DNA of 64,000 nt from Rhodospirillales bacterium (lineage in GTDB: Bacteria; Pseudomonadota; Alphaproteobacteria; Bin95), in NCBI GenBank assembly GCA_038143065.1, contig JAYQLI010000012.1:64001-128000 (forward strand), written 5' to 3'. Below, one piece after another: positions 17,915-41,528 of the stretch. The translations under genes were made by a program, and so were the position numbers. Below the pieces are notes generated by a model. It had not been told where the DNA came from. It ran no database searches and saw nothing but the letters and a program-made list of their open reading frames with translations. Each line of letters opens with the position of its first letter. Position 1 is the first letter of the stretch.

Positions 17915-18945
17915 TTATTCTGACAAAGCCGATGCATGCATTGTAGCCTGTAACAAAAGTCTAGGCTGAGTTTGAGCTTCCTCTTGAAAATTTAATTTTG
18001 AGCGCCATCCTCTCCAATTCGCCTGAATAAGAGCTTGAGCCGTCGCACCGCCAAGCGTGGTGCCTGGGCCCAAAACGATAAAAACATCTGGCATAAATTC
18101 ACGCGCCGCTGTGCGAATAGCTGCCGTAAAGTCATAAGGTTCAACAACCTGATGCCCTAGCGTGTAGTTATATAGCGCGCTAATATCTGTCGAGTTGGGA
18201 TACCAAATTGCACCACGACCATCAATGAGCGGGATGGTCGGTTGGACAAATAGCTGCTCTGAAAGCGCGTCAAAGCCAAGTTTGGAAATAGGTCTTTGCA
18301 AATGGGTATGAAAACCTGCATGATTTTGTAGGCGCATCGGGAAACGCCCCTGTAAAGCTGGGACTGATCTTTCAAATGCGCTCAAACCTGCCTCGTTTCC
18401 CGCAAGTACCAACATGCCACCAAGATCAATGGATAGGCCCAGATCGTGATCTGGGCGGGCGTTGATCGTGGCGGCTTCAGACAGCAAATTGTCGCGTCTG
18501 CCAGGAATTTCTTGCCAATTATCGTCTAGAAAAGGATAGATCAATTGGCCACCAATCATGTGAACTTGCATGAGCGTTCCCATGGTGTTGACAACCTGCA
18601 TCCCACCCATGGGATCAAGTGCACCCGCGCAAGCCAACGCGATATACCAACCCATGGAATTGCCCGTTATCCCAACAATATCGAAAAGATCACGATCAAT
18701 GGAAACAAAATCAGAATAGGCGCAGGCATAAATAAGCGGTGCCGCATTGTCACCGCGCGTGTGTGTGGGACCAGAAAATTGGGAAAACGTATCTAGCTCA
18801 CTGATTTTTTTTGGCCAAGCGTGGCGCGGTAAGCATCAAATTGGTCAAGATTTGGAGCGTTCGGGTGATGCCGTTTCAGATAACCGAGTTCGTTTTTATT
18901 ATAAGTGCCCCGGCCAGGCGCGATAACAACTGCGGTTTGTTTCAT
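17915..18945 (-). CDS. FabD-like acyltransferase (ACP S-malonyltransferase family), frameshifted near 18810
   Basis: MKQTAVVIAPGRGTY start overlapping the upstream stop (ATGA); GNSMG nucleophile motif; HAGFH; YTLGHQV; LGPG. Confidence 0.85.
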
Positions 18946-21125
18946 AAGGTATTCCAAAGCTTCGTAGCAGCCGTGATTATACTCTCTCGACTGGGCATTG
19001 TGGCGGCATATGCTGGACCCGTCGCGATAAAGCTATCTTCCGCAGCAAGACGTGCCACGGGGAGATCGCTGCGTTCCGTAAGCATCGCAAATAAGGCTTC
19101 GGCCTGGCCACCGGTTCCGCGACATTCATCTACAACCAGAACTTTTTGTGCACCGTCAATGGCGGATAATATGCCCTCGGCAGGAAGAGGGGCAATCCAG
19201 CGGATGTCGACAATACGTACTTCAATTCCTTGTTTTTTCAGAACTTTAGCGGCTTGTTGTGATAAATAATGACCATTGCCATAAGTGATAATAGCCAAAG
19301 GGCCATTGCCTGTAACGCCGACTTCGCCCAATGAAATGCATTCATCCATTGCGGGGTAAGTGTGCATCCAACCGCCGTCTTTTTCATCGTGCAAATCACG
19401 CATTGGATACAGCGCGATGGGTTCTACAAACACCACAACACGCTGTTCTTCGCGCGCTAGTCGTAAGCATTCGCGCAGCATTTTAACAGCGTCAGCACCG
19501 TGGGATGGGCAAGCAACGATCACTCCAGGGATGTCGCGCAAGACTGCAAGCGAATTATCGTTATGGAAATGCCCACCAAAACCTTTTTGGTAACCCAATC
19601 CCGCTATGCGCAGCACCATAGGGTTTGTGAATTGTCCATTGGAAAAAAAAGAGAGCGTTGCGGCTTCGCCGCGAATTTGATCTTCAGCGTTGTGAAAATA
19701 AGCAAGGAACTGGATCTCAGGAAGTGGAATAAACCCGTTATGGGCCAAACCGATCGCCAAGCCGAGTATGGATTGCTCATCTAGCAATGTGTCGATCACC
19801 CGATCCTGACCGAAACGATCACAAAGCTTTTGGGTCACACCATAAACGCCTCCTTTACGGCCCACGTCTTCGCCCATCATTATAATTTCAGGATGTTCAA
19901 GCATAAGATCGGTCAATGCCCAGTTTATCAACTTCGACATATTTTGAGGTTTTTCCATTTGTTGTATGTCGCTGCCGAATGCAATCTCTCGTGCCTCTTT
20001 AGATGGACCGTTGGTGAGCTTACATTCTCTTTTGGGTGGCACGATAGAGGCCATGACCTCCCGCGATGTAGACAGACGTTGTTGTTGGATCACCTCCTCA
20101 GCGACTCGAGCGCATTGCTCTTCAGTCTCAAGATATATTGAGAGAACCTGGTCAGCCGTTAGAACGCCGCTTTCGGTAAGCAAGCGCGCCGAATGCAGCA
20201 GCGGATCGTTTTGCTCCCATTCCTCAAATATACTTTTCGCCAGATAAGTTTGTTGCAGATCTGCGCCTGCATGACCGTAAAGGCGAACCAGCGAAAGATG
20301 TAAAAATGCAGGTTTCTTTCTTTTGCGGACATATTCTGCAGATGCCTGTGCTACGCAAAAAGTGTCAAATAAATCAAGGCCGTTTGCTTTGAAGTATTTC
20401 AGACCTGGTTTATTGGCAAAGCTTGCGCCAATCCAACCTTGAGGTGTGCGCGTGGAAATGCCGATATCGTTGTCTTCACAAACAAACAATAGAGGTAGTG
20501 GGACAGATTGATAGGAGGTCCAGCAGGCTGTATTTATTGCCCCTTGCGCTGTGGAATGGTTCGCCGACGCATCACCAAACGAGCACATGACAATGCTATC
20601 ATCCTTCAAAACTTTGTGTTCAGGTGGATGTCGTTTGGCTAATGAAATGGAATATGCAGTACCGACCGCTTTGGGAAGGTGACTGGCAATCGTAGACGTT
20701 TGGGGCGGGATGTTCATAGCCTTGGATCCAAGTACCTTATGACGACCGCCAGACATAGGGTCCGATTTTGCGGTGGAGAAGCTGAGCAGCATATCCCAAG
20801 CAGGTGTTGTTCCAGGCACCATTGCAGAACGGCGCGTTTGAAACGCACCATCCCGATAATGCAGAAACGCCATATCATCGGGCCGTAATGCAGAAGCAAT
20901 CGCCGCCATGCCTTCGTGCCCGGATGAACCGATGGTATAAAACCCTTGTCCAGCGCTTTGCATTTTGCGCGAGCGTCGATCAAGATTTCGGCTCAGGCAT
21001 TGAGCCCGAAAAATCGCAACGGCCTCAAAGCTAGACAAAGGACCGTATGGCGCATCACCACTGGGAAATTCACCTGCACTCACTCTGGCAAGAAAAGCCT
21101 CGTGAACGATATCTGCGCGATCCAT
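18942..21125 (-). CDS. Fused alpha/beta TPP-dependent 2-oxoacid dehydrogenase E1
   Basis: GHEG, HYRD, TPP motif GDAS...EDN, GEDVGRKGGVY, LDEQ, EIQF, FGGHFHN. Confidence 0.92.
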   Translation of the reverse strand: MDRADIVHEAFLARVSAGEFPSGDAPYGPLSSFEAVAIFRAQCLSRNLDRRSRKMQSAGQGFYTIGSSGHEGMAAIASALRPDDMAFLHYRDGAFQTRRSAMVPGTTPAWDMLLSFSTAKSDPMSGGRHKVLGSKAMNIPPQTSTIASHLPKAVGTAYSISLAKRHPPEHKVLKDDSIVMCSFGDASANHSTAQGAINTACWTSYQSVPLPLLFVCEDNDIGISTRTPQGWIGASFANKPGLKYFKANGLDLFDTFCVAQASAEYVRKRKKPAFLHLSLVRLYGHAGADLQQTYLAKSIFEEWEQNDPLLHSARLLTESGVLTADQVLSIYLETEEQCARVAEEVIQQQRLSTSREVMASIVPPKRECKLTNGPSKEAREIAFGSDIQQMEKPQNMSKLINWALTDLMLEHPEIIMMGEDVGRKGGVYGVTQKLCDRFGQDRVIDTLLDEQSILGLAIGLAHNGFIPLPEIQFLAYFHNAEDQIRGEAATLSFFSNGQFTNPMVLRIAGLGYQKGFGGHFHNDNSLAVLRDIPGVIVACPSHGADAVKMLRECLRLAREEQRVVVFVEPIALYPMRDLHDEKDGGWMHTYPAMDECISLGEVGVTGNGPLAIITYGNGHYLSQQAAKVLKKQGIEVRIVDIRWIAPLPAEGILSAIDGAQKVLVVDECRGTGGQAEALFAMLTERSDLPVARLAAEDSFIATGPAYAATMPSRESIITAATKLWNTL

Positions 21126-21144
21126 AAATTATTTCCCTAGATGT

Positions 21145-22353
21145 TCAAAAAAAGGCCTGCAAGCCGGTCTGTGCGCGGCCCAAGATAAGGGCATGCACAT
21201 CATGGGTTCCTTCGTAGGTGTTAACCGTTTCCAGATTAACCATATGGCGGATCACCTGAAACTCCTCAGAAATTCCATTGCCTCCGTGCATGTCACGAGC
21301 ATGGCGAGCAATTTCTAAGGCTTTGCCGCAATTATTACGCTTCATAATACTGATCATTTCTGGCGCAGCCTTTGCCTCGTCCATCAGGCGGCCAATGCGC
21401 AAGCTTCCCTGCAAACCAAGTGTGATTTCAGTTTGCATATTGGCCAATTTCAATTGGAAAAGTTGTGTTTGAGCAAGTGGTTTATTGAACTGTTTACGAT
21501 CCAAACCATACTGGCGCGATGCATGCCAGCAGAATTCTGCAGCCCCCAGAACACCCCATGAAATACCGTAACGTGCCCGGTTCAAACACCCAAACGGCCC
21601 CTTAAGACCTTCGACATTCGGAAGCAGTGCATCTTCGCTCACTTCCAGGTTATCCATAACAATTTCGCCGGTGATTGAGGTACGCAATGACATTTTACCG
21701 CCAATTTTAGGTGCCGAAAGACCTTTCATACCTTTATCCAGAATGAAGCCGCGAATTTTATCGCCATGGGCGTTAGATTTTGCCCAAACCACAAATACAT
21801 CTGCGACTGGGCTGTTTGAAATCCACATTTTAGAACCGTTAAGGACATACCCGCCCTGCACTTTTTCTGCGCGGGTTTTCATATCACCCGGATCACTACC
21901 GGCATCTGGTTCAGTAAGCCCAAAACAACCGATGAATTCGCCACTGGCCAGTTTAGGTAAATATTTCTGACGCTGTTCTTCGGAGCCATAGGCATATATC
22001 GGATACATCACCAATGAGGATTGCACGGACATCATAGAACGGTACCCAGAATCAACACGTTCAATTTCGCGCGCAACCAGCCCGTAAGTGACATAAGATG
22101 CGCCTAAACCGCCGTATTCCTCAGGAACGGTAACGCCAAGCAAACCCATTTCTCCCATTTCACGGAAAATTTTTGTTTCTGTGGTTTCATTGGCATAGGC
22201 TTCAATAACGCGAGGCTGTAGTTTTTCTTGAGCAAAGGTACGGGCTGAATCCCGCATCATCCGTTCTTCCTCATTGAGTTGCTGCTCCAGAAAAAATGGG
22301 TCATCCCAGTTAAAACAAGACAAGCCTGGGACGTCTTTGGGTTTTAGTGACAT
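21145..22353 (-). CDS. gcdH: Glutaryl-CoA dehydrogenase
   Basis: [64 protein letters not shown]. Confidence 0.95.
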
Positions 22354-22364
22354 ATGACTATCCT

Positions 22365-23597
22365 TTATGAAAGTTTGGCCACGGCGTTAGCAATACGCGC
22401 ACAACCTTCTTTTAAATCCGCCATCGCATAGGCGTATGACAATCGAAAATGGCCGGACAAACCAAAAGCGCGCCCGGGCACAAGCGCAACGCCGGCACTG
22501 GCTAAGATGTATTCACAAAATTCGGCGTCAGTGGTTAGCTCGGTTCCATCTGGCGTTTTGAGGCCAAAGGTTTTCACACATGAGGGAAAAACATAAAACG
22601 CACCGCCCGGGGTGGGGCAATCAAGGCGCCGTGTTTTGTTCAATGCATCCACCACATAGTCTCGACGTTCTTTGAAAGACGCTAGGCGTTTGCTCAGAAC
22701 ATCTTGTGGCCCTGTAAGGGCAGCAATTGCGGCGGCCTGCGAAATTGAGCATGCTCCAGATGTGGATTGGCCCTGCACGCCCACCATTGTAGCGATAAGT
22801 TCACGCGGGCCAATGCCCCAGCCCAAACGCCAACCAGTCATGGCATAGGCTTTGGACACACCATTTACAATGAGCATGCGGGCCAAAAGGTCGGGCGCAA
22901 TTTCACGGAATGATGTGAAAGTATCATATGAGATATGTTGATAAATTTCATCTGCCAATATCCAAACATGCGGGTTTGCACGCAAAACATCAGCGAGAGC
23001 AGATAATTCTTGTGAAGAATATAACGCGCCAGACGGATTGCCAGGTGAATTCAGCAATAACCATTTTGTTTTTGATGTAATTGCGGCAGACAGTTGTGCT
23101 GGGGATAGCTTGAAATTTGTTTCGCCAGTGCATGCGACTGGCACTAAATTAGCCTGACAAAACGCTACTATGTCGGCGTATGATGTCCAATAAGGCGCAG
23201 GAACAATAACTTCGTCTCCTTGATTAAGCGTGGCCAGGAAAGCATTTGATAGCACCTGTTTCGCTCCTGTACAGACGATCACTTCGGTTTTGTCCGGTTT
23301 TCCGCTTGGGCCGGAAGCCGTGTGTTCTATAATGGCCTTCCTTAAAGAAGGTATGCCCTGCGTTGGTGGGTAAGTTGTTTGCCCTGCTAGCATAGCAGAA
23401 TGCGCGGCTTCGATGATATTCATTGGTGTTGGGAAATCTGGTTCGCCGGTACCAAAACTAAGAATATTCTCACCTTTAGCTTTGCGGGCTTGCACTGATT
23501 CTGAAATCCGAACGATTTCGGATAGTTTAACAGCTGCAGCGCGGTCAGATCTAGCAAACATAGGTGTTTTAATTTTTGTGTTCATTACGATACGCAA
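22365..23597 (-). CDS. PLP-dependent aminotransferase class I/II
   Basis: [32 protein letters not shown]. Confidence 0.93.
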
Positions 23598-23678: not shown

Positions 23679-24599
23679 ATGTCAAAATGGAATGATACTT
23701 CCATCCCGAGGAGGTTCCTACCTCCGTTTGCGTGGCTCGCCTCGTTCGAAGCAGTTGCAAGGCGCGGATCGGTCACAACTGCGGCCCATGAACTAAACCT
23801 TACGCAAGGCGCGGTCAGTCGCCATGTGCAAAAGCTGGAACAGCAAATCGGTGTGCAGTTGTTTGAACGGGATAAGCAGCGCCTGCATTTAACGGGGTCG
23901 GGTAAGACTTATGCAGAAGAGGTGCGCCAAGGCATAAGCCAAATAACCAACGCTGGCGTCAAATTGCATACTAACCCTAATGGGGGCGCGTTGAATTTAG
24001 CGGTGCTACCAGCATTCGGAACCCATTGGTTAGCGCCGCGTTTGGCGGATTTCATTGGCCAGTGTCCTGGCGTGACAGTCAATCTGTCAACGCGAACCCG
24101 TCCTTTTGACTTTTCGAACGAGAATTTTCACGCGGCCATACATTTTGGATTGAACGACTGGCCGGACGTGAACAGCTTGTTTTTAATGGAAGAAGAAGTA
24201 GTTGCCATTGCAGCACCCCTGATCGTGAAGCCAAGCGCCGCAAACGATATGGACGAGATTCTGAAAATGCCACTGTTGCATCTGCAGACACGGCCGGCAG
24301 CGTGGAGCCGTTGGTTTGCGCAACAAGATTTAGACGTGAAAAATATAACCGGCATTCAGTTTGACCAGTTTGCGACGATGATACAAGCAGTAGTTTCTGG
24401 CCTTGGCGCGGCAATTGTGCCCAAATATCTTGTCGAGAACGAGCTAAAACAAGGGAGACTGGTTGGGCTGGGCGGTTCTGCGACATCTGTAATTGGATCG
24501 TATTTTCTTGTATGGCCAGAACGCAGCGCACATCATCCCCCGGTTATGGCTTTCCAAAAGTGGATGAAATCCCTGGTAGGAGAAAACGCAATAATTTAA
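23679..24599 (+). CDS. LysR regulator (GcvA/GcdR-like), divergent from the gcdH operon
   Basis: HTH FEAVARRGSVTTAAHELNLTQGAVSR; LPAFGTHWLAPRL. Confidence 0.93.
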   Translation: MSKWNDTSIPRRFLPPFAWLASFEAVARRGSVTTAAHELNLTQGAVSRHVQKLEQQIGVQLFERDKQRLHLTGSGKTYAEEVRQGISQITNAGVKLHTNPNGGALNLAVLPAFGTHWLAPRLADFIGQCPGVTVNLSTRTRPFDFSNENFHAAIHFGLNDWPDVNSLFLMEEEVVAIAAPLIVKPSAANDMDEILKMPLLHLQTRPAAWSRWFAQQDLDVKNITGIQFDQFATMIQAVVSGLGAAIVPKYLVENELKQGRLVGLGGSATSVIGSYFLVWPERSAHHPPVMAFQKWMKSLVGENAII

Positions 24600-25108
24600 C
24601 CATCGGAGGTTGCCAGTTTTTTCTTAGATGGTTGTTGATTGGGACGCCAAGGTGCACGGCTACTGTGATCATTGGCAGAAATCAGTTTTTGGGTCAGCGT
24701 CATATACAAAGCGTATTCTTCATCTGTCAGAGGATCTATCAGCCGCCTTTGTGCTTTCACCATTCCAGGTTTCACTTTTTCGACAAGCTGGCGTCCCGCA
24801 AGGGTTATTTTGGCCAGCTTTGTGCGTTTGTCTGTCGGATTATCGGGCCGCTCCAGTAACTCGCGTTTGGCCAGACGTCTGATAACATCCGCAGCGGTGT
24901 TTCTGTCCACGCCAATCATTGAGGCAATGGTAACCTGATCGCGAACATTGCCATCTACAAGTACCGTAAGCACACCAAATTGGACAGGTGTTAGATCATG
25001 CTTGCCGCATTCCTCCAGAAAAAGGGCTACGTGGATTTGGTGCAACCGCCGAATAAGGTGTCCCGGTCGATCTGTAAGGTTTTGAAAAATCGAATCATCA
25101 ACTGACAT
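24596..25108 (-). CDS. MarR family regulator (PcaV/NicR-like)
   Basis: RPGHLIRRLHQIHVALF, LTPVQF, DKR...LAGR; divergent from the hydantoinase operon. Confidence 0.92.
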   Translation of the reverse strand: MSVDDSIFQNLTDRPGHLIRRLHQIHVALFLEECGKHDLTPVQFGVLTVLVDGNVRDQVTIASMIGVDRNTAADVIRRLAKRELLERPDNPTDKRTKLAKITLAGRQLVEKVKPGMVKAQRRLIDPLTDEEYALYMTLTQKLISANDHSSRAPWRPNQQPSKKKLATSDG

Positions 25109-25256: not shown

Positions 25257-25286
25257 TTGACACCGCCAATTTCCGTAGTACACTAC
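25257..25286 (+). promoter_or_regulatory. sigma70-like promoter with overlapping palindromic operator
   Basis: TTGACA (25257), 16 bp, TACACT (25279); inverted repeat GTAGT-AC-ACTAC (25275-25286) covers the -10 box. Confidence 0.7.
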
Positions 25287-25321
25287 CTAATATTGTGTGT
25301 TCGAACTTTGGAGAAAACCGT

Positions 25322-27394
25322 ATGGGTTGGACAGTTGGTGTGGATGTCGGCGGGACATTTACTGATTTTTATGCAGCGAACGATCAAACCGGAGTGTTTC
25401 ACGTTCACAAAACGTCGTCCACGCCTTCGAACCCAGCTGAAGCAATTCTAAATGGTCTTGACGTAATGTGCACCAAGTTCGATATCCCAGCGGATGAAAT
25501 CGAACGGGTGTCCCATGGAACAACAGTTGGCACCAATGCGCTGATCCAGCGCACTGGAAGCCGTGTGGCCTTGGTAACAACCAAAGGGTTTTGCGATCTG
25601 TTGGAAGTTGGTCGCCAAACGCGCCCTCATATGTATGACTTGCAACGGGATCACCCCGATCCGCTAGTGGATCGGGAATACCGCATTGAACTGAATGAAC
25701 GTATCGGCGCAAAGGGTGAAATCGTTCGCGCTCCGAGTGCTGAGGATATCGATGCGGCTGTTGATGAAGTGATTTCTGTGGCTGCAGGCGCCTGCGCCAT
25801 TGGGTTTGTTTTTTCGTTCAGAAATGACAGCCACGAACAAGCGTTTGCAAAGGCCTTGCGCAAACGTGCACCAGAGATTGCGGTTTCGGTGTCCTCCGAA
25901 GTACAGCCAGAATTTCGCGAATATGAACGACTATCCACAACAGTTCTCAACGCCTATTTGCAGCCTGTTATGTGGCACTATTTGGAAACCTTGGAAGCAG
26001 GGATCGCAGAACGTGCGCCCAATGCCAGCCTTGGGATTAACCAATCAAGTGGTGGATTGATGTCGGTTCAGCGGTCAAGGGAATTTCCAGTGCGGACTGC
26101 TCTGTCTGGTCCTGCTGCAGGTGCAGTGGGCGCGGCCCATGCGGCACGTCAAACAGGACGCCGCAATATCATTACGCTCGATATGGGTGGCACCAGTGCC
26201 GATGTAGCGTTGATCCGTGACTACAGCGTTGATCTGGCGTTTGATCGTGATGTAGCTGGCTTTCCTATTCGGATGCCGTGCGTTGATGTGGAAACTGTTG
26301 GTGCGGGTGGTGGCTCGATTGCGTGGTTTGATCGTGATGGTCTGTTGAAGGTTGGTCCAAAATCCGCAGGGGCGTATCCCGGACCCGCGTGTTACGGCAA
26401 TGGCGGCGACGAACCGACAACAACGGATGCGAACCTATTGCTAGGTCGTTTGTCTTCACGCGGTTTGCTGGATGGTGAAATGGGGCTTGATCCAGAGTTA
26501 TCCCGTGCAGTTTTTAAGCCGATTGCGGATCAGTTGGGTTTTACCCTCGAAAAAACCGCACAGGGGATGCTGGGTATCGTAATTGCCAATATGGTGCGAA
26601 CGATCCGCACCATTTCTGTTGAGCGTGGACATGATCCGCGTGACTTTGTGCTGATGCCATTTGGTGGCGCTGGGCCTCTGCACGCCCGTGATGTGGCTGT
26701 AAGCCTCGGCATGAAAGAAATGGTTGTGCCCGCCGCACCTGGTATCGTTTGTGCTCAGGGTCTGTTAGTGTCTGATTTGAAAGAAGATTTTGTTGTCAGC
26801 CGCCGTATTGCATTGGATGACACTGGGATCGGTGTTTTGGCGCAAACATTAGCAGACTTGCACACCAAAGCCGTGGATTGGTTTGCCAAGGAGAAAGCCC
26901 CTGAAACTGGTCGTAGTGTTCAATTGATTGTGGATGCGCGGTATGTGGGTCAAAACTTTGAACTTGCAGTGCCCGTGGCCGCAGGTGCGCAGTTATCTGT
27001 AAACGATGTACCAAATGCCCAAACGGTGACCAAAGCATTCTGTGATGCGCATGATCAAGCTTATGGCTACGCCAGCGAAACTGATCCCGTTGAAATAGTG
27101 AATGTTCGCTTGTCGGCACGTGCAAAGTTACACACATTCGAGGACAAACCAGCCGTAGATAGTGAAATAGATGAACCACAGGTGCGCGACACTCGTTTAG
27201 TTTATTATGATAGCGATGCTCCTGTTGAATCGCGTATTTACGACAGTGCGGAAATGCGCCCGGGCCAACGGGTCACCGGCCCAGCGGTTCTGGAGCAAAT
27301 GGACACGACCACACCAGTTTACCCTGGTGATGTTGCTGAAATGACGCCCGATGGGCATTTGATTATCACCATAAAGCCGGAGGACCTTGCATGA
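25322..27394 (+). CDS. Hydantoinase/oxoprolinase A subunit (ATP-dependent lactamase)
   Basis: GVDVGGTFTD, HGTTVGTNA, SGPAAG, DMGGTSADV, GAGGGSIA, GGAGPLH. Confidence 0.95.
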   Translation: MGWTVGVDVGGTFTDFYAANDQTGVFHVHKTSSTPSNPAEAILNGLDVMCTKFDIPADEIERVSHGTTVGTNALIQRTGSRVALVTTKGFCDLLEVGRQTRPHMYDLQRDHPDPLVDREYRIELNERIGAKGEIVRAPSAEDIDAAVDEVISVAAGACAIGFVFSFRNDSHEQAFAKALRKRAPEIAVSVSSEVQPEFREYERLSTTVLNAYLQPVMWHYLETLEAGIAERAPNASLGINQSSGGLMSVQRSREFPVRTALSGPAAGAVGAAHAARQTGRRNIITLDMGGTSADVALIRDYSVDLAFDRDVAGFPIRMPCVDVETVGAGGGSIAWFDRDGLLKVGPKSAGAYPGPACYGNGGDEPTTTDANLLLGRLSSRGLLDGEMGLDPELSRAVFKPIADQLGFTLEKTAQGMLGIVIANMVRTIRTISVERGHDPRDFVLMPFGGAGPLHARDVAVSLGMKEMVVPAAPGIVCAQGLLVSDLKEDFVVSRRIALDDTGIGVLAQTLADLHTKAVDWFAKEKAPETGRSVQLIVDARYVGQNFELAVPVAAGAQLSVNDVPNAQTVTKAFCDAHDQAYGYASETDPVEIVNVRLSARAKLHTFEDKPAVDSEIDEPQVRDTRLVYYDSDAPVESRIYDSAEMRPGQRVTGPAVLEQMDTTTPVYPGDVAEMTPDGHLIITIKPEDLA

Positions 27395-31623: not shown

Positions 31624-31624
31624 T

Positions 31625-33564: not shown

Positions 33565-34508
33565 GCGGAGCCGTTGTAACCTTGTCTGGTGGCGTCGGCG
33601 GTGCCAAACTGGTGCTGGGCATGTCCTATGTTGTTGCGGGCAGAGAACTGGTCGTTGTTTGCAATACTGGCGATGATTTCACGCATCTCGGTCTGCGAGT
33701 ATGCCCCGATATCGATTCCGTTCTATATGCGCTGTCTGGCCTGTCTGATCAGACGCGGGGTGGGGAAGAAAAAGACGAATCTTGGACCTTTATGTCCGCG
33801 ATGAAGGATTTGCAGGGACCAGATTGGTTCAATCTGGGTGACAGAGATTTGGCCACGCATGTTTTGCGCACAGATATGTTGGCGCAGAATAAAACGATGA
33901 CGGAAGTGACCGGTAATTTGGCGCTGCGGATGGGTATCGAGGCGGATATTCTGCCGATGAGCGATGATCCCGTTGCGACTATTGTTCATACAGACGCAGG
34001 TGATCTGGCATTTCAGCATTATTTTGTGCGCGAGCAATGCGGACCGCGTGTTGCTGGGTTCTCTTTTGATGGAACCGAAAATGCGGAACCACAGCCGCAG
34101 ATATTGGACGTGCTGCAATCTGACCCAGAATCTATTATCATCGCGCCGTCTAACCCTTACGTTAGTGTTGATCCCATTTTGCAGCTGAAAGGAATGAAGA
34201 CGGCGCTGAAAAATGCAGGCGCTCCCATTGTGGCCGTCTCGCCGATTATTGGTGGGAAAGCCATCAAAGGGCCAGCTGCCAAGATGATGCAAGAGTTGGG
34301 CAAAGACGTTTCGGTGCTTAGCATTGCAGCTCACTATCAAGATTTGATCGACGGTCTGGTGATTGATGTTAAGGACGCAGAATTGGCACCGCAAATTCGC
34401 GAGATGGGGATAAAAACCCTCGTCACACAATCAGTCATGACTGATCTGAACAGTCGCATTGAATTGGCACAAGCGACGCTGGATTTCGCACGGGACTGTG
34501 GGTCATGA
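33561..34508 (+). CDS. cofD: 2-phospho-L-lactate/PEP transferase
   Basis: LSGGVGGAKL, NTGDDF, CPDIDS, WFNLGDRDLATH, SNPYVSVDPI, KGPAAKMM. Confidence 0.96.
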   Translation: MSGAVVTLSGGVGGAKLVLGMSYVVAGRELVVVCNTGDDFTHLGLRVCPDIDSVLYALSGLSDQTRGGEEKDESWTFMSAMKDLQGPDWFNLGDRDLATHVLRTDMLAQNKTMTEVTGNLALRMGIEADILPMSDDPVATIVHTDAGDLAFQHYFVREQCGPRVAGFSFDGTENAEPQPQILDVLQSDPESIIIAPSNPYVSVDPILQLKGMKTALKNAGAPIVAVSPIIGGKAIKGPAAKMMQELGKDVSVLSIAAHYQDLIDGLVIDVKDAELAPQIREMGIKTLVTQSVMTDLNSRIELAQATLDFARDCGS

Positions 34509-35173
34509 CCGATGTCATAATTCCAGTCAAAGATTTGTCACGAGCCAAAGGACGGTTGCAAAACATCTTGACCCCCGCCGAGCGTGCGGGTCTTGTTTTG
34601 GCAATGTTACACGATCTGCTAACGACGCTTAATCAGTGTGCTTTGGGAGATATCTGGCTTGTCGCATGTGATGAAGCTGTGTTTGATCTCGGGGCAGAAT
34701 TCGGGGTCCATGATATCCGTGAACACGTTTCAAAGGGTTACAATCACGGCGTTTCTGCGGGATTGCAGTCCGTTAACGCAAAGAATTCAGTTGTTATTCT
34801 TCCCGCTGATCTGCCATTGGCAAAGCCCCACGACATTGCGCAGTTGATTCAAGCAGGAGCTGGTATCAATCCAACGGTTGCGATTGTGCCTGATCGTCAC
34901 AATCGTGGGACAAATGGGTTGTTTCTATCTGCTCCTGATTTGATCACACCTGACTTCGGTGAAAGCAGTCTTTTCAATCACAAGGTTGCCGCCGCACAAC
35001 TCAGTATTTCCGCACATGTCGTTCCTATCGAAGCAATGGCGATGGATATTGATAGCCCAGAGGATCTTTTTGCGGTGGCTCAATCGACGACATCCAATTC
35101 CACTACGAATTTTCTGGCATCCATTGCGTTTGGACAAGATGCGTGGACTTCACATAAATGGGAGGTCGCATGA
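34505..35173 (+). CDS. cofC: 2-phospho-L-lactate/PEP guanylyltransferase
   Basis: IIPVK....AKGRL, PADLPL, PDRHNRGTNGL, DIDSPEDL. Confidence 0.93.
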   Translation: MTDVIIPVKDLSRAKGRLQNILTPAERAGLVLAMLHDLLTTLNQCALGDIWLVACDEAVFDLGAEFGVHDIREHVSKGYNHGVSAGLQSVNAKNSVVILPADLPLAKPHDIAQLIQAGAGINPTVAIVPDRHNRGTNGLFLSAPDLITPDFGESSLFNHKVAAAQLSISAHVVPIEAMAMDIDSPEDLFAVAQSTTSNSTTNFLASIAFGQDAWTSHKWEVA

Positions 35174-37512
35174 CCTACGCTTCAAGCCAATCCACACTGC
35201 CCCATTACGTATCCGCTGACGAGGCAAAAGTATTTCTGAATAGGCCGATCGATACTCTGATGGCATGTGCAACCCAAATACGAGACGAGGGGCATGGGCG
35301 GCTGGTCAGCTATTCGCGCAAAGTGTTCATTCCTTTGACCAAATTGTGCCGTGATGTTTGTCATTATTGCACTTTTGCCAAAACGCCCAAAAAGATTGAT
35401 GCGCCATTTCTAAGCCCTGAACAAGTGCTTGAGATCGCGCGCGCTGGTCAGGTTGCTGGATGTAAAGAAGCCTTGTTCACGCTCGGCGACAAACCGGAAC
35501 TGCGATATTCCGTTGCGCTTGAAGCTTTGGCGGAAATGGGCTATGAAACCGACGCTGGATTACCTGCATGCAATGGCGGAATTGGTGATCAACGAAACCG
35601 GTCTTTTGCCCCATCTTAATCCCGGCGTGATGACCCGCAATGAACTGGCGAAGTTGCGCGAAGTTTCAGTTTCTATGGGAATTATGCTGGAGTCGACCTC
35701 GTTGCGGTTAATGGAGCAGGGAGGGTGCCACTTTGGCTCACCTGACAAAGATCCTGCTGTTCGATTGAAACGATCCGTAATGCGGGCGAACTGAAAATCC
35801 CGTTCACCAGCGGCATTTTGATTGGAATCGGAGAAACGCGTGCGGATAGAATTGAAAGCCTTCTGGCCTTGCGCGATTTGCACCAAGAATTTGGCCACAT
35901 TCAGGAAATAATTATCCAGAATTTCCGCGCCAAGCCAAATACGAAAATGGCCGATGTGCCCGAACCTGATTTGACTGACTTGCAGTGGACCATCGCGATT
36001 GCGCGGGTTATTTTTGGGGCTGAGATGTCAATACAAGCGCCCCCAAATTTGTCTGATGGTGGTGCAGGGTTGATCGCTGCGGGGATAAACGATTGGGGTG
36101 GTGTTTCACCTGTTACGCCGGATCATGTGAACCCAGAGGCCCCTTGGCCTCTTTTGGATCAACTTGCTGATGATACCGCAGGTTGTGGAAAGATATTGGT
36201 AGAACGGTTGGGGATTTACCCGAACTATGCGCATCAAAATACGGTTTGGCTGGATAAAAAGCTGCGTAAACCAGTGCTTGATCTGATTGATGCCGATGGA
36301 TTGGCACGCACGGACAGTTGGGTTCCAGGTGATGCATCCCAAGATTTACCCAAGCTGCCGAAATCGCCTGCGGTCATTCCAGACATGGGTCTGTCACGCG
36401 TTTTGGTGAAGGCAAATAAGGGTGAGAACCTGTCCGAAGCAGATATCTGCCGCCTTTTGACCGCACGGGATTGCGAAGTTCATGAGGTCATGCAAGCCGC
36501 AGATGACGTTCGCAAACGGGTGAGTGGCGAAACGGTGAGTTATGTTGTAACACGCAACATCAACTATACCAATATCTGTTATTTTAAATGCAAATTCTGC
36601 GCCTTTTCCAAAGGCAAGATGAGCGATAACCTGCGCGGTCGCCCCTACAATTTGGGCGCTGATGTTGTGGTTGAGCGTGCGCGCGAAGCATGGGATCGCG
36701 GCGCGGTTGAGGTTTGTTTACAGGGCGGTATTCATCCCGAATATACAGGCCAAACCTATCTTGATATTCTGAGTGCAATCAAATCTGAGCTGCCTGATAT
36801 GCACGTCCATGCGTTTTCCCCGCTAGAGGTGCACCAAGGGGCCGCTACGTTGGGTGTTTCAGTCTATGATTTTATTGGGCAGTTAATTGACGAAGGATTG
36901 GGCAGCTTGCCTGGCACTGCGGCAGAAATTTTGGACGATGAAGTGCGACGTGATTTGTGCCACGACAAGATCAATACAGCCGAATGGTTCGAAGTGGTGA
37001 ACGCGGCACATAAACAGGGGCTAAAAACTACTGCAACAATCATGTTTGGCCATATTGACCGACCCGTGCATTGGGCGCGGCATATGCTGCGTCTGCGGGA
37101 TCAACAGACTAAAACTGGTGGATTTACCGAATTAGTACCCTTGCCGTTTGTTCATATGGAATCACCGATTTACTTGAAGGGTGGGTCGCGTAAAGGGCCA
37201 ACTTGGCGGGAATCCGTGTTGGTTCATTCCGTTGCGCGTTTGGCGTTGAACCCGCTGATCCCAAACATTCAGGCCTCTTGGGTCAAGCTCGGCCCGGAGG
37301 GCGTCGCGGCTTGTTTGTCCGCCGGAGTGAACGACATTGGCGGCACTTTGATGGATGAGACCATCACACGCTCTGCTGGGGCGGCGCATGGGCAGGAAAT
37401 GACACCTTCCGCGATGGAAGAGTTGTTGTTGCGCCAAGGCCGCCCATCGCGGCAACGCACGACACTATATCAAGATGCGGCAAAGGATCGGCGTTTAGCT
37501 TCATTTGCTTAG
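35170..37512 (+). CDS. fbiC: Fused FO synthase CofG-CofH (two frameshifts in the CofG half)
   Basis: [21 protein letters not shown] and [17 protein letters not shown] radical-SAM motifs; the CofG C-terminus and CofH share one ORF (35818-37512). Confidence 0.93.
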
Positions 37513-37537: not shown

Positions 37538-38851
37538 TTAGCCGACCTGATTAGGCAGCCACGTGGCAATAGCTGGAAAAGCGACAATCAGCGCTATACC
37601 CAACAAGAACAGCGCGACAAACGGCCAGGTTGCGCGGTAAACTTGACTGATGCTCATGTCTGGCACGACGGCCTTGAACGCGAACAACGTATATCCGAAT
37701 GGCGGAGTGATCGCGCCAAGGGTAATGTTGACGAGGAACAGCAGCCAGAACCAAACTGGATCAAACTCCAGCGCAGTGACGACGGGTTGGTAGATCGGGA
37801 TCGTCAGTAAGATCACTGCGATCGTGTCGATGAACATACACAGAATAAACGGGACCGCTAGCATGACAAGCAACATCGCAATCGGAGAGTATCCAAGATT
37901 GGCAACTAGATTAACCAGTTCACCGGTCGCGCCGGTGAAAGCGAGCAGCTGTGTGAACATCTTAGACATCGCCATAATGGCTAAGATCATTGCAGAAACT
38001 TTTATCGCGGCCATTAGCGAGTCCAAGATCATCTGTAATGAAAGCTTCCGGTAGATAGCTGCGGTTAACAACGATCCAACTACGCCGGTTGCGGCCGATT
38101 CAGATGGAGTTGCGATACCCAACATAATAAAGCCCATAACCGAAAAGATCACGATCAAGAAGGGCATGGTGCGGACAATAGCTATGAGTTTCTCCATCGG
38201 TGTGACTTCGGCCCGCTCGCCTGCAACATTGCCCGGAGCAAGTGAGGGGTTCATGCCGATCCGTACAAAGACGTAAACCAAGAAAATCCCACCGATAAAG
38301 AGACCAGGGATAACACCTGCAATCAGCAGTTTTGCAATCGACACGTCAGCTATAGAGCCAACAATAATCGCCAGTAGACTAGGTGGGATAATCGGAGCAA
38401 GGCTCGCACCGCCGATAATCAGGCCCGCCGCGATACTACGATCGTAACCGCGATCGTGCATCCCCGGCATAATGGCCCGCCCAAGCATCGCAGCCACGGC
38501 CATGGCAACACCGGAGAGCGCGCCAAAGACAGCGGATAAGACGACGACCAGAACGTATTGGCGGCCCCGTACTTTGCCCACCAGTTTGTCAATTGAATCG
38601 AACAAAACGTCCATTGTTCCAGATCGAAACAGCAATTCACCCATTAGGATGAACAAGGGTATTGAGGCCAAAGAAGTAGTTGTGGCCGTGTCGAGCACCG
38701 AATTTGCAAACAATGGAAATCCGGCGGGGCCAATGACGAAATACACGCCCAGCAAAATCGCTGCCAGAAAGGCAAGAAAGATTGGAGCGCCCGACAAAAA
38801 CAAAACGAAGAGGATCGCCATCCCCAAAATAAGCGTTGTGTACCATTCCAT
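37538..38851 (-). CDS. dctM: TRAP transporter large permease
   Basis: SIPLFILMG, LAPIIPPS, GIATPSESAA, ITPPFG. Confidence 0.95.
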   Translation of the reverse strand: MEWYTTLILGMAILFVLFLSGAPIFLAFLAAILLGVYFVIGPAGFPLFANSVLDTATTTSLASIPLFILMGELLFRSGTMDVLFDSIDKLVGKVRGRQYVLVVVLSAVFGALSGVAMAVAAMLGRAIMPGMHDRGYDRSIAAGLIIGGASLAPIIPPSLLAIIVGSIADVSIAKLLIAGVIPGLFIGGIFLVYVFVRIGMNPSLAPGNVAGERAEVTPMEKLIAIVRTMPFLIVIFSVMGFIMLGIATPSESAATGVVGSLLTAAIYRKLSLQMILDSLMAAIKVSAMILAIMAMSKMFTQLLAFTGATGELVNLVANLGYSPIAMLLVMLAVPFILCMFIDTIAVILLTIPIYQPVVTALEFDPVWFWLLFLVNITLGAITPPFGYTLFAFKAVVPDMSISQVYRATWPFVALFLLGIALIVAFPAIATWLPNQVG

Positions 38852-39372
38852 TAATCTGCTTGCTCGCTTGCATCAACACCGCTAATGCGGTGTTTAGGGG
38901 ATAAATAAAGCAGCAGGTAAATTGCGCTTAAACCTAGCCCGAAAGTGATAAATGAAGACACCCACCATTGCGGAATTGGCACAATGGCAAGGGTATGAAT
39001 CCCACGGGTGAATTGCCGGATGTTTTCCTGCAAACTAACCCAAGCAGCGAAAGAGAGGCATAAGAAACCTAAGATGCTGATGATGACATGCAAAATGTTG
39101 GCGATGGGTTTTGGAGCGATGTCGACCAAAATCGTAACGGCAACATGGGCTTTATCTTTGGTGACGTGGGGCAGCGCAAGAAATGCTGATGCGCAAAGGG
39201 CATATGCCACAAAATCGCTGGCCCATGCTGTTGGTGATTGAAAAACATACCGCGAAACGACTTCGTAGATGTAGGAACAGACAATCATGGCAAGACCGGT
39301 TGCAGCGAGGACTGATGCCGCCAGCGTCAGGAAGTCAACCACCTTTTTAACATTTGTGACAATCACGGTCAT
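38851..39372 (-). CDS. dctQ: TRAP transporter small permease
   Basis: Four TM segments, YEVVSRYVF, HVAV; lies between dctP and dctM. Confidence 0.92.
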   Translation of the reverse strand: MTVIVTNVKKVVDFLTLAASVLAATGLAMIVCSYIYEVVSRYVFQSPTAWASDFVAYALCASAFLALPHVTKDKAHVAVTILVDIAPKPIANILHVIISILGFLCLSFAAWVSLQENIRQFTRGIHTLAIVPIPQWWVSSFITFGLGLSAIYLLLYLSPKHRISGVDASEQAD

Positions 39373-39408: not shown

Positions 39409-39443
39409 AAAAAAGTGCCCGGCCCCTATCAGGAACCAGGCAC
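39409..39443 (-). terminator. Hairpin plus T-run after dctP
   Basis: - strand GTGCCTGGTTCCT-GAT-AGGGGCCGGGCAC-TTTTTT. Confidence 0.7.
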
Positions 39444-39457
39444 AAGATCACTATAAT

Positions 39458-40432
39458 TTACATGCCTTTTGAAGCAACAAAGTCCCGGAAGGCTTCGCCT
39501 GTTGCGCCTGATGCTTCAACGGCCACTTCCATTGCACGATCTGCGAACAATGCATTTGCTTCTTCCAGTGTGTACCCAATGGAAGTTTTCTTTGCACCAG
39601 CCGCCATCATCGCTGCGTTTTCTTGTTCCAGAAGCGCATTGAAGATATCGATCGAGTTTTGTTCCAGCTTGTGACCCGCTTCGAGCATTGCTGTCTGCTG
39701 GGCTTCATTCAAGCTGTTCCATTTGTCTAAGTTCATCATGATCAAATAGGAAACTGTGCCAAACGCTGGCTCTGCCAGATAAGGTGTAACTTCGTGGAAT
39801 TTATAGCCTACAGCGCCAACAGAAGGCCACACCAGCCCGTCAATTACGCCTTTTTCAGCAGCTGAGTAAAGTTCGCCAAACGGGATAACAACCGCAGTAC
39901 CACCCAAAGATCCAACAATTTTATTGTAGGATGGCAGGGCACGAATTTTTGTACCGTTAAGTTTATTGGTTTCATCCATTGGCTCTTTTAGGAAGAAACG
40001 GAACCCGGTTGTTGCTGTTGGAATTGACAGAACTTTCAGGTTTTGCGTTTCCTGGTAGTGCGCATCCACCCAATCCCAAATACCAGACGTACGGCGTTTT
40101 TCGATGTCACCGTTTACGGCGTCAATCGCAGCACCGACGCCTGTGTCACCAGTGTGGTACAAGCCGTGCGTGTAGATGATGTCAAAGACACCAGCCGAAA
40201 CTGGTTGAATTTGTTTACCACCTGGCACAACTTCTGGTCCGCTTGGCGTAATATTGATGTCGCCGCCAGAGATTTCTTTGACTAGATCAATGTAACCGTA
40301 AGCCATATTGGCTGTGCCAGAGTGATTGCCACCCCAAGCTGTCAACATTTTCATGTCTTCAGCAAAACTTGCTGACGCGGACAAAGCTAAGCCCAAGGTG
40401 GCCGCAACCAGTGATTTTGATATATTGTTCAT
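39458..40432 (-). CDS. dctP: TRAP substrate-binding protein
   Basis: Signal peptide, GTKIRA, LGG...IPFGELYSAAEKGVIDG. Confidence 0.93.
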   Translation of the reverse strand: MNNISKSLVAATLGLALSASASFAEDMKMLTAWGGNHSGTANMAYGYIDLVKEISGGDINITPSGPEVVPGGKQIQPVSAGVFDIIYTHGLYHTGDTGVGAAIDAVNGDIEKRRTSGIWDWVDAHYQETQNLKVLSIPTATTGFRFFLKEPMDETNKLNGTKIRALPSYNKIVGSLGGTAVVIPFGELYSAAEKGVIDGLVWPSVGAVGYKFHEVTPYLAEPAFGTVSYLIMMNLDKWNSLNEAQQTAMLEAGHKLEQNSIDIFNALLEQENAAMMAAGAKKTSIGYTLEEANALFADRAMEVAVEASGATGEAFRDFVASKGM

Positions 40433-40801
40433 TTAGCAGTCTCCCATTTTTTCTATCGCCGAACCGAGGGGTCTACCCTCTGAAACAAGTGACTTCAGCG
40501 GTGTTGGTGTTCAAATTATGTAGTATACGTCTTATTATGTCGAATCATATTTTTAAACCTAATTAAACTACTGTAATGATGTGTTTTTTTTGGATGCAGA
40601 AGTAAGTTCCGTAGCAAAAACGGCAAATTCCTAGTACGAAACATGTAAATTTTATTGATGACAAGACGCCGGTAAGCCTACAGATAAAGCAATAGGAAAA
40701 TGCCAGATCGTAACGCCTAAATTGACGCGGATTTTGTTATTAAGTTGTTAGTAGGGGTTACGGTTTTTGTAGACTTTTGAGTCATATGGCTGATAACTAA
40801 C

Positions 40802-40813
40802 GTAGTGTACTAC
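40802..40813. promoter_or_regulatory. Second copy of the GTAGT-N2-ACTAC operator
   Basis: GTAGTGTACTAC is the exact reverse complement of 25275-25286. Confidence 0.7.
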
Positions 40814-40853
40814 GTGTTTAATGTTGACGCCAAATTTGGATTGGAAATGCACT

Positions 40854-41528
40854 ATGAGTGATGAATTTAAAATACTGTCTGGCATCATGGACAGCCGTTA
40901 TAGCTGCCGAGCATATCTTGATAGAGAGGTGAGTGATGCCGACATCAACCAAATTGTCAAAACCGCATCAAAGGTTCCGACGTGGTGCAATGCTCAGCCA
41001 TGGAAAATTTTGGTTACCAAAGGTGATGAAACAAAATCTTTTGCAAAAACGATGGTAGACGCCGCCAACGCTGGCCCAATGGAACCCGATTTTGATTGGC
41101 CCAAGCAATATACGGGTGATTATCAAGATCGCAGACGTGTGTGCGGGTATCAGCTGTATGAATCCTTGGGTATTGCGCGAGATGATCGGGAAAAGCGCGC
41201 AGAACAAATGATGCAAAATTTCAAATTTTTTGGTGCTCCACATGTTGCGATTGTAACAACAGAAGCTGATCTAGGCCACTATGGTGCAATGGATTGTGGT
41301 GGGTTCATAGCATTGTTCACATTGGCCGCCCGCGCGTTAGGGGTAGCATCAGTTGTTCAAGCTTCTGTAACGGGTTATGCACCAATCATTCGCAGTCATT
41401 TTGGAATTTCAGAAAACAGGCTTATTCAAACAGCAATTTCATTTGGATATGAAAACAAAGACCATCCCGCTAACAGTTTTCGCACACAGCGAGCAATAAT
41501 CGAAGATGTTTTGAACATTGTCTCTTAA
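40854..41528 (+). CDS. Nitroreductase family protein
   Basis: RYSCRAY, PTWCNAQPW, FFGAPH, DCGGF, AISFGY. Confidence 0.93.
   Translation: MSDEFKILSGIMDSRYSCRAYLDREVSDADINQIVKTASKVPTWCNAQPWKILVTKGDETKSFAKTMVDAANAGPMEPDFDWPKQYTGDYQDRRRVCGYQLYESLGIARDDREKRAEQMMQNFKFFGAPHVAIVTTEADLGHYGAMDCGGFIALFTLAARALGVASVVQASVTGYAPIIRSHFGISENRLIQTAISFGYENKDHPANSFRTQRAIIEDVLNIVS

Follow-up and report, generated by a model that had tools for sequence, protein, structure and literature searches.

The DNA analyzed here is a 64,000-nucleotide (nt) stretch of the genome of a Rhodospirillales bacterium (assembly GCA_038143065.1, contig JAYQLI010000012.1, positions 64,001 to 128,000), which as a whole is referred to as the window. 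Its positions 24596 to 41528 carry a gene cluster that combines a MarR-family regulator, a two-subunit enzyme of the hydantoinase/oxoprolinase family (HyuAB), a luciferase-like monooxygenase family (LLM) oxidoreductase of the type that uses the deazaflavin cofactor F420, a coenzyme A (CoA) ligase, a thioesterase, the genes for recharging and synthesizing F420, a tripartite ATP-independent periplasmic (TRAP) importer and a nitroreductase-family flavoprotein. Gene families were called by Pfam and NCBIfam profile scans, and the nearest solved structures were taken from sequence matches to the PDB. The features of the cluster are as follows.

24596..25108, minus strand: MarR-family regulator (PF01047), divergent from hyuA
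25275..25286, no strand: palindromic operator candidate GTAGTACACTAC upstream of hyuA, from a motif scan of the window
25295..27394, plus strand: HyuA, subunit A of the ATP-dependent hydantoinase/oxoprolinase (PF01968, Hydantoinase_A, 318.8 bits; PF05378; PF19278)
27391..29086, plus strand: HyuB, subunit B (PF02538, positions 1-177 and 189-519, in two frames)
29103..30125 (alternative start 29058), plus strand: LLM1, F420-type LLM oxidoreductase (TIGR03617, 325.7 bits, cut-off 278.15)
30112..31623, plus strand: ANL-family acyl-CoA ligase (PF00501 and PF13193)
31544..32065, plus strand: hotdog thioesterase of the 4HBT/PaaI type (PF03061; TIGR00369, 48.8 bits, cut-off 36.6; PDB 3e29, E 5e-13)
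32083..32766, plus strand: Fno, NADPH:F420 oxidoreductase (TIGR01915, 204.6 bits, cut-off 149.8)
32785..33564, plus strand: CofE (TIGR01916, 273.4 bits, cut-off 180.65)
33561..34508, plus strand: CofD (TIGR01819, 291.5 bits, cut-off 257.45)
34505..35173, plus strand: CofC (TIGR03552, 152.4 bits, cut-off 105)
35158..37512, plus strand: FbiC, a fusion of CofG and CofH (NF006687 in two pieces; CofH domain 502.5 bits, cut-off 374.1)
37538..38851, minus strand: DctM, large membrane subunit of the TRAP importer (PF06808, 251.7 bits)
38851..39372, minus strand: DctQ, small membrane subunit of the TRAP importer (PF04290, 83.1 bits)
39458..40432, minus strand: DctP, solute-binding protein of the TRAP importer (NF037995, 71.2 bits, cut-off 50; PF03480)
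40802..40813, no strand: second operator copy GTAGTGTACTAC, 8 nt ahead of the nitroreductase start codon
40821..41528, plus strand: nitroreductase-family flavoprotein (PF00881, 83.7 bits; PDB 3gr3, E 3.9e-33, and NfnB)

CofC, CofD, CofE, Fno and the CofH domain of FbiC all score above their NCBIfam cut-offs, and together with LLM1 they belong to F420 families. Owing to frameshifts in the assembly, which are considered below, FbiC matches its full-length model (cut-off 1018) only as two pieces, of 153.5 and 801.2 bits. The 340-amino-acid (aa) form of LLM1 that starts at 29103 is identical to a database entry, and its closest solved structures are those of Mer (E 3e-16). That LLM1 is an F420 rather than an FMN enzyme is suggested by its linkage to the fno and cof genes and by the presence of CofD in the genomes of all three related loci that lack cof genes of their own. 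The thioesterase frame overlaps that of the ligase, and its real start probably lies downstream of 31544. All three components of a TRAP transporter (DctP, DctQ and DctM) are present. An earlier note on this DNA had described positions 17915 to 41528 as a self-contained F420-dependent catabolic island, and all of the gene classes that it named are found there. In addition, this region encodes a LysR-family regulator, a FabD-like acyltransferase and the nitroreductase. The earlier note had overlooked the frameshifts, the second LLM of the canonical operon and the nitroreductase that replaces this second LLM here.

The arrangement of the cluster is not fortuitous, as its genes are found in the same succession in 39 other loci. 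These came from a scan of one genome per species with an alignment of LLM orthologues, which gave 400 pattern matches, of which 292 were confirmed. Among the best 80 of these 292 confirmed loci, the identity to the LLM of the window is 57% or more in 47 and at most 42% in the remainder. When the proteins of the window were compared to the 47 loci by tblastn, the same genes were found in the same order in 39 (L011-L048 and L057), this order being MarR-HyuA-HyuB-LLM-ligase-(LLM2)-thioesterase-Fno-CofE-CofD-CofC-FbiC-DctMQP, with the MarR gene at the same position in most of them. The core is thus a real and conserved operon, present in at least 39 species-level genomes. Clustering of the unassigned open reading frames (ORFs) of the 39 loci yielded a second LLM (LLM2) as the only extra conserved family, and no other conserved neighbors outside of the core. 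These loci belong to species-level genomes of marine and estuarine Alphaproteobacteria (Paracoccaceae/Rhodobacteraceae, Rhizobiaceae including Hoeflea isolates, Hyphomicrobiales, Geminicoccaceae, Kordiimonadaceae and Magnetovibrio) and Gammaproteobacteria (Candidatus Njordibacter, Oceanospirillaceae, Granulosicoccaceae, Acidiferrobacteraceae and Piscirickettsiaceae), and the two classes are intermingled in the LLM tree. Each of the remaining 8 of the 47 loci has kept only the LLM and the adjacent ANL ligase, apart from L056, in which HyuA and HyuB matches of 55-66% identity are found as well. The retention of this pair in all eight distant loci indicates that the LLM probably acts on the product of the ligase. 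Three loci (L044, L047 and L048) have no adjacent cof genes, and in all three of these genomes a CofD above the cut-off is encoded elsewhere; F420 biosynthesis genes are always found in the same genome as the cluster. Contigs nearly identical to all or part of the cluster are present in 20 public metagenome or metatranscriptome runs from 15 studies of estuary, salt marsh and marine samples, and 14 of these runs contain at least half of the sequence words of the stretch. Six of the 20 runs are RNA libraries, from which contigs alone are no proof of transcription.

The canonical operon harbors two LLMs. LLM2 passes the TIGR03619 cut-off (180.8 versus 166.9 bits) and is encoded between the ligase and the thioesterase in 30 of the 33 loci in which both neighbors are visible, as well as in L046, but the window, L011, L012 and L047 are without it. 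A gene for a PF00881 nitroreductase adjoins the cluster in the window, in the genome of L012 (70% identical), in L047 (31%, 115 bits) and in L013 (66%), where the ligase-thioesterase junction is unseen; the L011 contig ends before the nitroreductase position. In none of the 31 loci with LLM2 is a nitroreductase found beside the cluster. The LLM tree places the clade of the window (window, L011, L012 and L013, support 100/99) well apart from L047, the sister of which, L040, keeps LLM2. As these two clades are separate and well supported, LLM2 was replaced by a nitroreductase at least twice, and the nitroreductase is proposed to take over the role of LLM2. This swap between an LLM and a nitroreductase fold marks one step of the pathway as a reduction that can be served by two cofactor systems. 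The possibility that the nitroreductase supplies the missing reductase of F420 biosynthesis, the dehydro-F420-0 reductase found as the C-terminal domain of FbiB, was rejected, as the protein has no match to TIGR03553 and resembles general nitroreductases (3gr3 and NfnB) rather than that domain.

The nitroreductase gene and hyuA also have a palindrome in common. The motif GTAGTNNACTAC (a box also written GTAGTAYACTAC) matches exactly in the marR-hyuA spacer of the window, as GTAGTACACTAC, and the window has a single further exact match, GTAGTGTACTAC, placed 8 nt ahead of the start codon of the nitroreductase. When one mismatch is allowed, the window holds three matches, two of them the exact ones, against an expectation of 0.55. 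The exact motif occurs at the same place in 16 cluster loci, and with at most one mismatch it precedes hyuA in 30 of the 37 loci whose sequence extends over the 5′ end of hyuA. In L023, it precedes dctP too, and in L136 and L013 the nitroreductase gene has related boxes ahead of it. The palindrome is a conserved operator candidate that is common to hyuA and the nitroreductase gene in the window.

Like the caprolactamase CapAB, 5-oxoprolinase and N-methylhydantoinase, HyuAB consists of A and B subunits with full-length Pfam domains and finds its best matches among hydrolases of the hydantoinase/oxoprolinase family. In the PDB, HyuA is closest to an N-methylhydantoinase (7hk5, E 2.3e-146), followed by 6yra (E 2.3e-113). 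Hydrolase-type structures score 492 and 383 bits versus 258 and 213 bits for carboxylase-type structures, with acetone carboxylase at 213 bits, and the CapA model scores 551 bits versus 275.6 bits for the carboxylase ApcC. The two pieces of HyuB reach 126.6 and 152.4 bits with the CapAB models. No gamma subunit gene was found, the LLM gene following hyuB without an intervening ORF. By these family comparisons, HyuAB is of the hydrolase type rather than the carboxylase type. The same genome has a chromosomal HyuAB paralogue that is 54-67% identical (L135; C35:2596001-2616000), located amid glycolate-oxidase-like, phosphoribosyltransferase and MeaB genes, which is possibly a housekeeping 5-oxoprolinase. 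Attempts to derive the specificity of the ligase and the importer from solved structures failed: malonyl-, feruloyl- and 4-chlorobenzoyl-CoA ligases are equally distant from the ANL ligase, and the best PDB match of DctP (4mnc, E 1.6e-19) is too distant to indicate a ligand.

In this genome, the cluster behaves as a mobile island. Its GC content is 0.48-0.52, versus 0.38-0.47 in the flanks, and it was not found in 40 relatives, in which the best LLM match is 40% identical. Similarly, HyuA matches do not exceed 43% in twenty relatives of the L011 genome. A contig of another genome shares 90-97% DNA identity with the island, and the only other long match of that contig, to positions 44001-64000 of the window, is 79% identical. 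The earlier note's view of a self-contained F420-dependent catabolic unit is borne out by the presence of an importer, a regulator, recharging by Fno and cofactor synthesis, as well as by the GC contrast and the absence from relatives. The right flank contains an integrase fragment at 46705-47376. More generally, the flanks (1-17900 and 41500-48500) hold very few long ORFs, with fragments of glutathione S-transferase, EamA and dienelactone hydrolase genes and repeats that are 80-97% identical to copies on small contigs (C1, C2, C5, C7, C13 and C50), and no counterparts of these flanks were found among the relatives searched. A tRNA at the right edge of the island, suggested by a tRNA-like sequence seen by eye after 41528, was dismissed, as the window gave no tRNA with ARAGORN. 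A further set of fno, cofE, cofD, cofC and fbiC is encoded on the main chromosome contig of the host, at 34-64% identity to the island genes. These chromosomal genes are dispersed, with fbiC, cofC, fno and cofE-cofD found in C35 at 1735786-1739844, 2367392-2368045 and 2582775-2584419. About 10-30 LLM matches are found in this genome and in each of its family relatives. Given the chromosomal cof set and these LLM numbers, F420 or LLM chemistry seems to be a trait of the family that is independent of the island.

To the left of the cluster lies a second group of genes, which could process the product of HyuAB.

17915..18945, minus strand: FabD-like acyltransferase, about 343 aa (PDB malonyl-CoA:acyl carrier protein transacylase, E 1.2e-11), frame split near 18805
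18942..21125, minus strand: fused alpha and beta E1 component of a 2-oxoacid dehydrogenase, 727 aa (PF00676, PF02779 and PF02780)
21145..22353, minus strand: GcdH, glutaryl-CoA dehydrogenase (three acyl-CoA dehydrogenase domains; PDB 4w9u, E 2.4e-212)
22365..23597, minus strand: class I/II pyridoxal phosphate-dependent aminotransferase, AspC-like (PF00155, 244.8 bits; NF004769, 457 bits, below the cut-off of 617)
23679..24599, plus strand: LysR-family regulator (PF00126 and PF03466; GcvA-type, 244 bits, below the cut-off of 288)

GcdH aligns with bacterial and human glutaryl-CoA dehydrogenases at E 3.9e-191 to 1.3e-169 over residues 12-402, and with other acyl-CoA dehydrogenases at E 1e-67 or weaker. 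Its nearest relatives are thus characterized GcdH enzymes over its full length, which places it among the glutaryl-CoA dehydrogenases, and no NCBIfam equivalog cut-off is reached. The fused E1 is most similar to the E1-beta of pyruvate and branched-chain 2-oxoacid dehydrogenases (PDH/BCKDH, E 2.6e-40). It is of this type and not of the SucA/DHTKD1 type, so that a 2-oxoadipate dehydrogenase complex was not recognized. Neither E2 nor E3 ORFs were found in the E1 operon, and the FabD-like acyltransferase is there instead, as the final gene of the aminotransferase-gcdH-E1 operon. This acyltransferase had no match in the Pfam scan and scores 55 bits with TIGR00128, under its cut-off, but has intact 344/345-aa orthologues in L120 and L125. 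A trio of GcdH, fused E1 and FabD-like protein (about 344 aa, with a GNSMG motif) is found in 11 other genomes (L102, L120-L132) and may represent an unusual 2-oxoacid-to-acyl-CoA system in which the acyltransferase replaces E2. The LysR gene is divergent from the aminotransferase-gcdH operon, and a LysR gene likewise adjoins the trio in L102. In L047, a variant of the cluster without LLM2 and cof genes, an acetolactate-synthase-like thiamine diphosphate (ThDP) enzyme (L047:8-1588) lies beside the nitroreductase-MarR end, and is a possible analogue of the E1 link.

We consider it about an even chance that positions 24596-41528 are one instance of an operon under MarR control that has spread horizontally and serves to break down an imported organic acid by the following mechanism. 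The TRAP system would import a carboxylate, and the ANL ligase would convert it into a CoA thioester, thereby activating a conjugated, probably heterocyclic, ring. LLM1 would then add a hydride from F420H2, and a second reduction would be performed by the second F420-dependent LLM in most genomes and by the nitroreductase-family flavoprotein here, with Fno recharging F420 from NADPH. The hotdog thioesterase would release the acid, or would be a safety valve for trapped CoA, and the two-subunit HyuAB would open the lactam with ATP to yield an amino-dicarboxylic acid. In this lineage, the product would probably proceed to the LysR-controlled aminotransferase/E1/FabD-like/GcdH module, which is the weakest step; a C6 skeleton would fit, passing from 2-aminoadipate via 2-oxoadipate to glutaryl-CoA. 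A six-membered pyridone acid that gives rise to 2-aminoadipate fits the neighboring module, a five-membered ring that gives rise to 5-oxoproline and glutamate fits the loci without a lower pathway, and 6-hydroxypicolinate is one of several substrate options.

The cluster is a variant of F420-dependent catabolic clusters. The npd module for picrate and 2,4-dinitrophenol of Rhodococcus and Nocardioides consists of NpdG, which is an Fno, and the F420H2-dependent hydride transferases NpdI and NpdC. It resembles the proposed pathway in having an Fno-type recharger and Mer-like LLMs by which an electron-poor ring receives two hydrides in succession, and the Fno of the window meets the npdG model TIGR01915. 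Unlike npd, the cluster described here adds a CoA ligase, a thioesterase, HyuAB, a TRAP importer and F420 biosynthesis genes, occurs in Proteobacteria, and has one reductase that can be swapped for a nitroreductase fold. The 4-chlorobenzoate dehalogenation operon comprises a ligase, a dehalogenase and a 4HBT thioesterase, and is similar in that an aromatic acid is handled as a CoA ester, modified at the ring and released by a hotdog thioesterase; the 4-chlorobenzoate-CoA ligase is among the nearest solved relatives of the ligase of the window (E 1e-36). Here the homology is at the level of superfamilies only, and the ring step differs in that an F420-dependent reduction is proposed. In the nicotinate route of Eubacterium barkeri and Azorhizobium, the reductase is ferredoxin-dependent, and carbon from nicotinate catabolism in Azorhizobium reaches glutaryl-CoA.

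This route, through 6-hydroxynicotinate, is described as reductive and hydrolytic in E. barkeri and the alphaproteobacterium Azorhizobium caulinodans (PMC9304392), and resembles the proposed pathway in that the ring of a hydroxypyridine carboxylate is partly saturated before a hydrolytic C-N opening. It uses other enzymes, an enamidase being named, and the passages that describe it mention neither F420 nor CoA (PMC9304392). The earlier note's statement that no oxygenase-free route of this kind was known in marine Alphaproteobacteria thus calls for a qualification, although the enzymes of the known route are indeed different. Proteobacteria such as Paracoccus, Oligotropha and Paraburkholderia make F420, and a 2021 review lists the reason for this production as an open question (PMC8498797). 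Other proteobacterial F420 operons similarly have cofC, cofD, cofE and a fused fbiC, plus fno, but those described here form part of a specific catabolic operon. With it, the making and recharging of F420 are connected to a single concrete task in catabolism, which bears on the question posed in that review (PMC8498797). It is possible, though rather doubtful, that F420 has in this operon its first defined physiological use in Proteobacteria, the operon being a widespread, horizontally traded marine pathway that, free of oxygenases, dearomatizes or saturates the CoA ester of an N-heterocyclic carboxylate with F420H2, after which ATP-driven HyuAB opens the lactam. An operon that brings its own cofactor genes would then work in hosts that are otherwise without F420. 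A lactam hydrolase linked to F420 enzymes was not found in the literature searched on that combination, nor was a description of the operon found in full-text literature pairing F420 with the names of its other enzymes or with homarine. Carriers in culture include two Hoeflea strains (Hoeflea sp. TYP-13, L017, and Hoeflea poritis E7-10, L022), and the genome of the carrier Candidatus Njordibacter (L032) is complete, so that the role of F420 in Proteobacteria is directly testable.

Several points weigh against the proposed pathway. The roles of its enzymes are predictions from family membership, the order of the steps is not fixed, as HyuAB could act first on an imported lactam, and the thioesterase may be only a safety valve. 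HyuA, with 551 bits, falls short of the 1000-bit cut-off of the caprolactamase CapAB models (NF050156/NF050157), and is thus not an equivalog of that lactamase. Solved relatives of the ligase and DctP are all distant. The cofactor genes of the island are redundant in this host, because the chromosome has its own set. The other points concern the link to the GcdH module, for which the E1 was searched in 35 cluster-bearing genomes, with 40 relatives and 80 further genomes of the family of one carrier (G066) as background. An E1 orthologue was found in 13 of the 35 carriers versus 6 of the 120 background genomes (1/40 and 5/80), an enrichment that overstates the signal, as related genomes are not independent, and it was not found in the other 22 carriers. 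Within the 80 genomes, five have the E1 and one has the LLM, none having both. Each module is under a regulator of its own, MarR or LysR, and the aminotransferase-LysR spacer holds no copy of the operator of the cluster. The E1 adjoins the cluster in 4 of the 35 carriers, and there are three arrangements: G041 and G062 are organized like the window, the E1 of G072 is directly divergent from hyuA, and in G074 the E1 and FabD-like genes lie beside marR-dctP, with GcdH and the aminotransferase missing at the adjacent E1 in the latter two. Among the 25 loci with a full upstream flank, three have such genes within 10 kb upstream of the LLM, the aminotransferase, GcdH and E1 only in L011 and L012, and the E1 and FabD-like genes in L024. 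The trio lies far from the cluster in nine genomes with both modules and occurs without it in six, one of which (G040) has the trio and a LysR gene and no LLM match. The link between the cluster and the GcdH module is partial, and neither module needs the other. The earlier note had joined the two halves into one pathway; in favor of this, the E1 is enriched among carriers and its adjacency to the cluster recurs in other genomes, but most carriers lack a detectable E1, the regulators are separate and each module occurs alone.

That the two halves are functionally unrelated, the aminotransferase-GcdH-E1-FabD-like genes being an independent lysine/aminoadipate or glutarate module that rides on the same island, is accordingly a serious possibility, which we hold to be somewhat short of an even chance. 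It agrees with the module's own LysR and its lack of a MarR-type operator, with the trio occurring alone in G040 and in 5 of the 80 genomes of another family that have no LLM, with its distant location in the nine genomes having both, and with the presence of a second GcdH-like gene, 65% identical, on the host chromosome; it is countered by the three distinct adjacent arrangements in four genomes and by the frequency of the E1 in carriers (13/35 versus 6/120). If the halves do belong together, the specific route put forward in the earlier note would have 6-hydroxypicolinate activated with CoA, reduced twice to 6-oxopipecolyl-CoA, released, and opened by HyuAB to 2-aminoadipate, which transamination and then decarboxylation by the E1 would convert to glutaryl-CoA for oxidation by GcdH. 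The two ring C=C bonds of this compound need two reductions, which matches the two reductases per cluster (LLM1 with LLM2, or LLM1 with the nitroreductase), and a thioester at C2 would activate the C2=C3 bond. An aminotransferase, a ThDP-dependent E1 and a true GcdH lie next door here, the E1 pair recurs beside the cluster in four genomes, and L047 has another ThDP enzyme beside the cluster. Yet none of the evidence points to 6-hydroxypicolinate over other ring acids, the E1 is lacking in most carriers (22/35), two of the four adjacent cases have neither GcdH nor aminotransferase, and the E1 is of the PDH/BCKDH type and without an E2. The literature on 6-oxopipecolate and related names is mostly human and animal metabolomics, with no bacterial catabolism among the matches listed. 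This exact route is thus very unlikely.

The neighboring module would be dispensable if the ring were five-membered. An unsaturated 5-oxoproline-type acid (a pyrrolinone or hydroxypyrrole carboxylate) would then be reduced as its CoA ester to 5-oxoproline, and HyuAB would act as a 5-oxoprolinase to yield glutamate, for which no dedicated lower pathway is necessary. The best solved relative of HyuA is a 1288-aa enzyme deposited as an N-methylhydantoinase (E 2.3e-146), the length and fused A-B layout of which we take to match eukaryotic 5-oxoprolinases. The chromosomal paralogue that is 54-67% identical to HyuAB sits among housekeeping genes, and the 39 loci showed no conserved catabolic neighbors outside of the core, which is consistent with the product itself being a central metabolite. 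The enrichment and repeated adjacency of the E1 and FabD-like genes, however, would be left unexplained, making this version unlikely. The chemistry could also be of another kind, in which the LLMs oxidize a hydroxy acid, Fno passes the electrons to NADP+ and HyuAB carboxylates a ketone, or in which the ligase and the LLMs reduce a carboxyl group from acyl-CoA via the aldehyde to the alcohol. Alcohol and sugar-phosphate dehydrogenases are known among F420-dependent LLM enzymes and Fno can run in both directions, according to PMC8498797, and the relatives of HyuAB include acetone and acetophenone carboxylases. Such schemes are nevertheless improbable, as the carboxylase matches are much weaker than the hydrolase matches and the gamma subunit is missing, the TRAP importer implies that the substrate is already an acid, and the ability of a nitroreductase fold to replace LLM2 points to a reduction step. 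Homarine was rejected as a substrate, as its homABCDER operon, which is described as using an FAD protein, HomB, a peptidase and an aldehyde dehydrogenase (PMC13236597), bears no relation to the cluster.

As assembled, hyuB consists of two ORFs, fbiC of three frame segments, and the gene for the FabD-like protein is split. Compared to the L011/L120 contig, which is 90-97% identical, the breaks are due to four 1-nt indels at short homopolymers, at 27947, at about 35549-35551, at 35767 and at about 18805. The hyuB indel is an extra A at 27947 that is absent from L011; the fbiC indels, +1 at about 35549-35551 and -1 at 35767, are both absent from L011; and in the FabD-like gene a base is missing beside a T8/A8 run near 18805. 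Logan contigs from three DNA runs and one RNA-library run, which are 95-99% alike to the window, were aligned over 27800-37600. The extra base at 27947 is absent in all four runs, the base at 35549/35551 is omitted in all three runs that cover it, and the G missing after 35766 is present in the contigs of all four. The site near 18805 lies outside of the aligned stretch, and the comparison there relies on L120. Similar breaks are common in the rest of the genome. Of 187 long ORFs from 300 kb of a same-genus genome, 120 were matched at 55% identity or more, and 37 of these orthologues are in pieces in different frames, which, after subtraction of five tandem paralogues and one shadow ORF, leaves about 31 of 120 split genes. 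Even the essential rpoB is found in two overlapping frames (C35:2660058-2664196), and rpoC is whole. As the same type of break occurs genome-wide, and as the run contigs lack the indels that they cover, the breaks in hyuB, fbiC and the FabD-like gene are assembly errors and not decay. A decaying, non-functional island with real frameshifts would account for four indels in three genes and for flanks that are poor in ORFs and rich in repeats and gene fragments, but is at odds with the broken rpoB and the roughly 31 of 120 conserved chromosomal genes, with the position of every indel at a homopolymer and with the intact frames in the contigs of the four runs. Decay is therefore most improbable, and the pseudogene reading of the frameshifts was rejected.

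Given the frequency of 1-nt frameshifts throughout this genome, pseudogene calls in it would need independent reads. A compensated -1/+1 pair at 33757/33769 in cofD, 12 nt apart, changes four codons relative to L011 (UBA4479 contig). Long contigs of two DNA runs span these positions without a gap and read as the window does, so that this pair is a genuine difference or an error in the other record. Lastly, one contig of an X1 metagenome omits 261 nt (87 codons) inside of fbiC, at 35634-35896, which was treated as a strain variant or a chimera.

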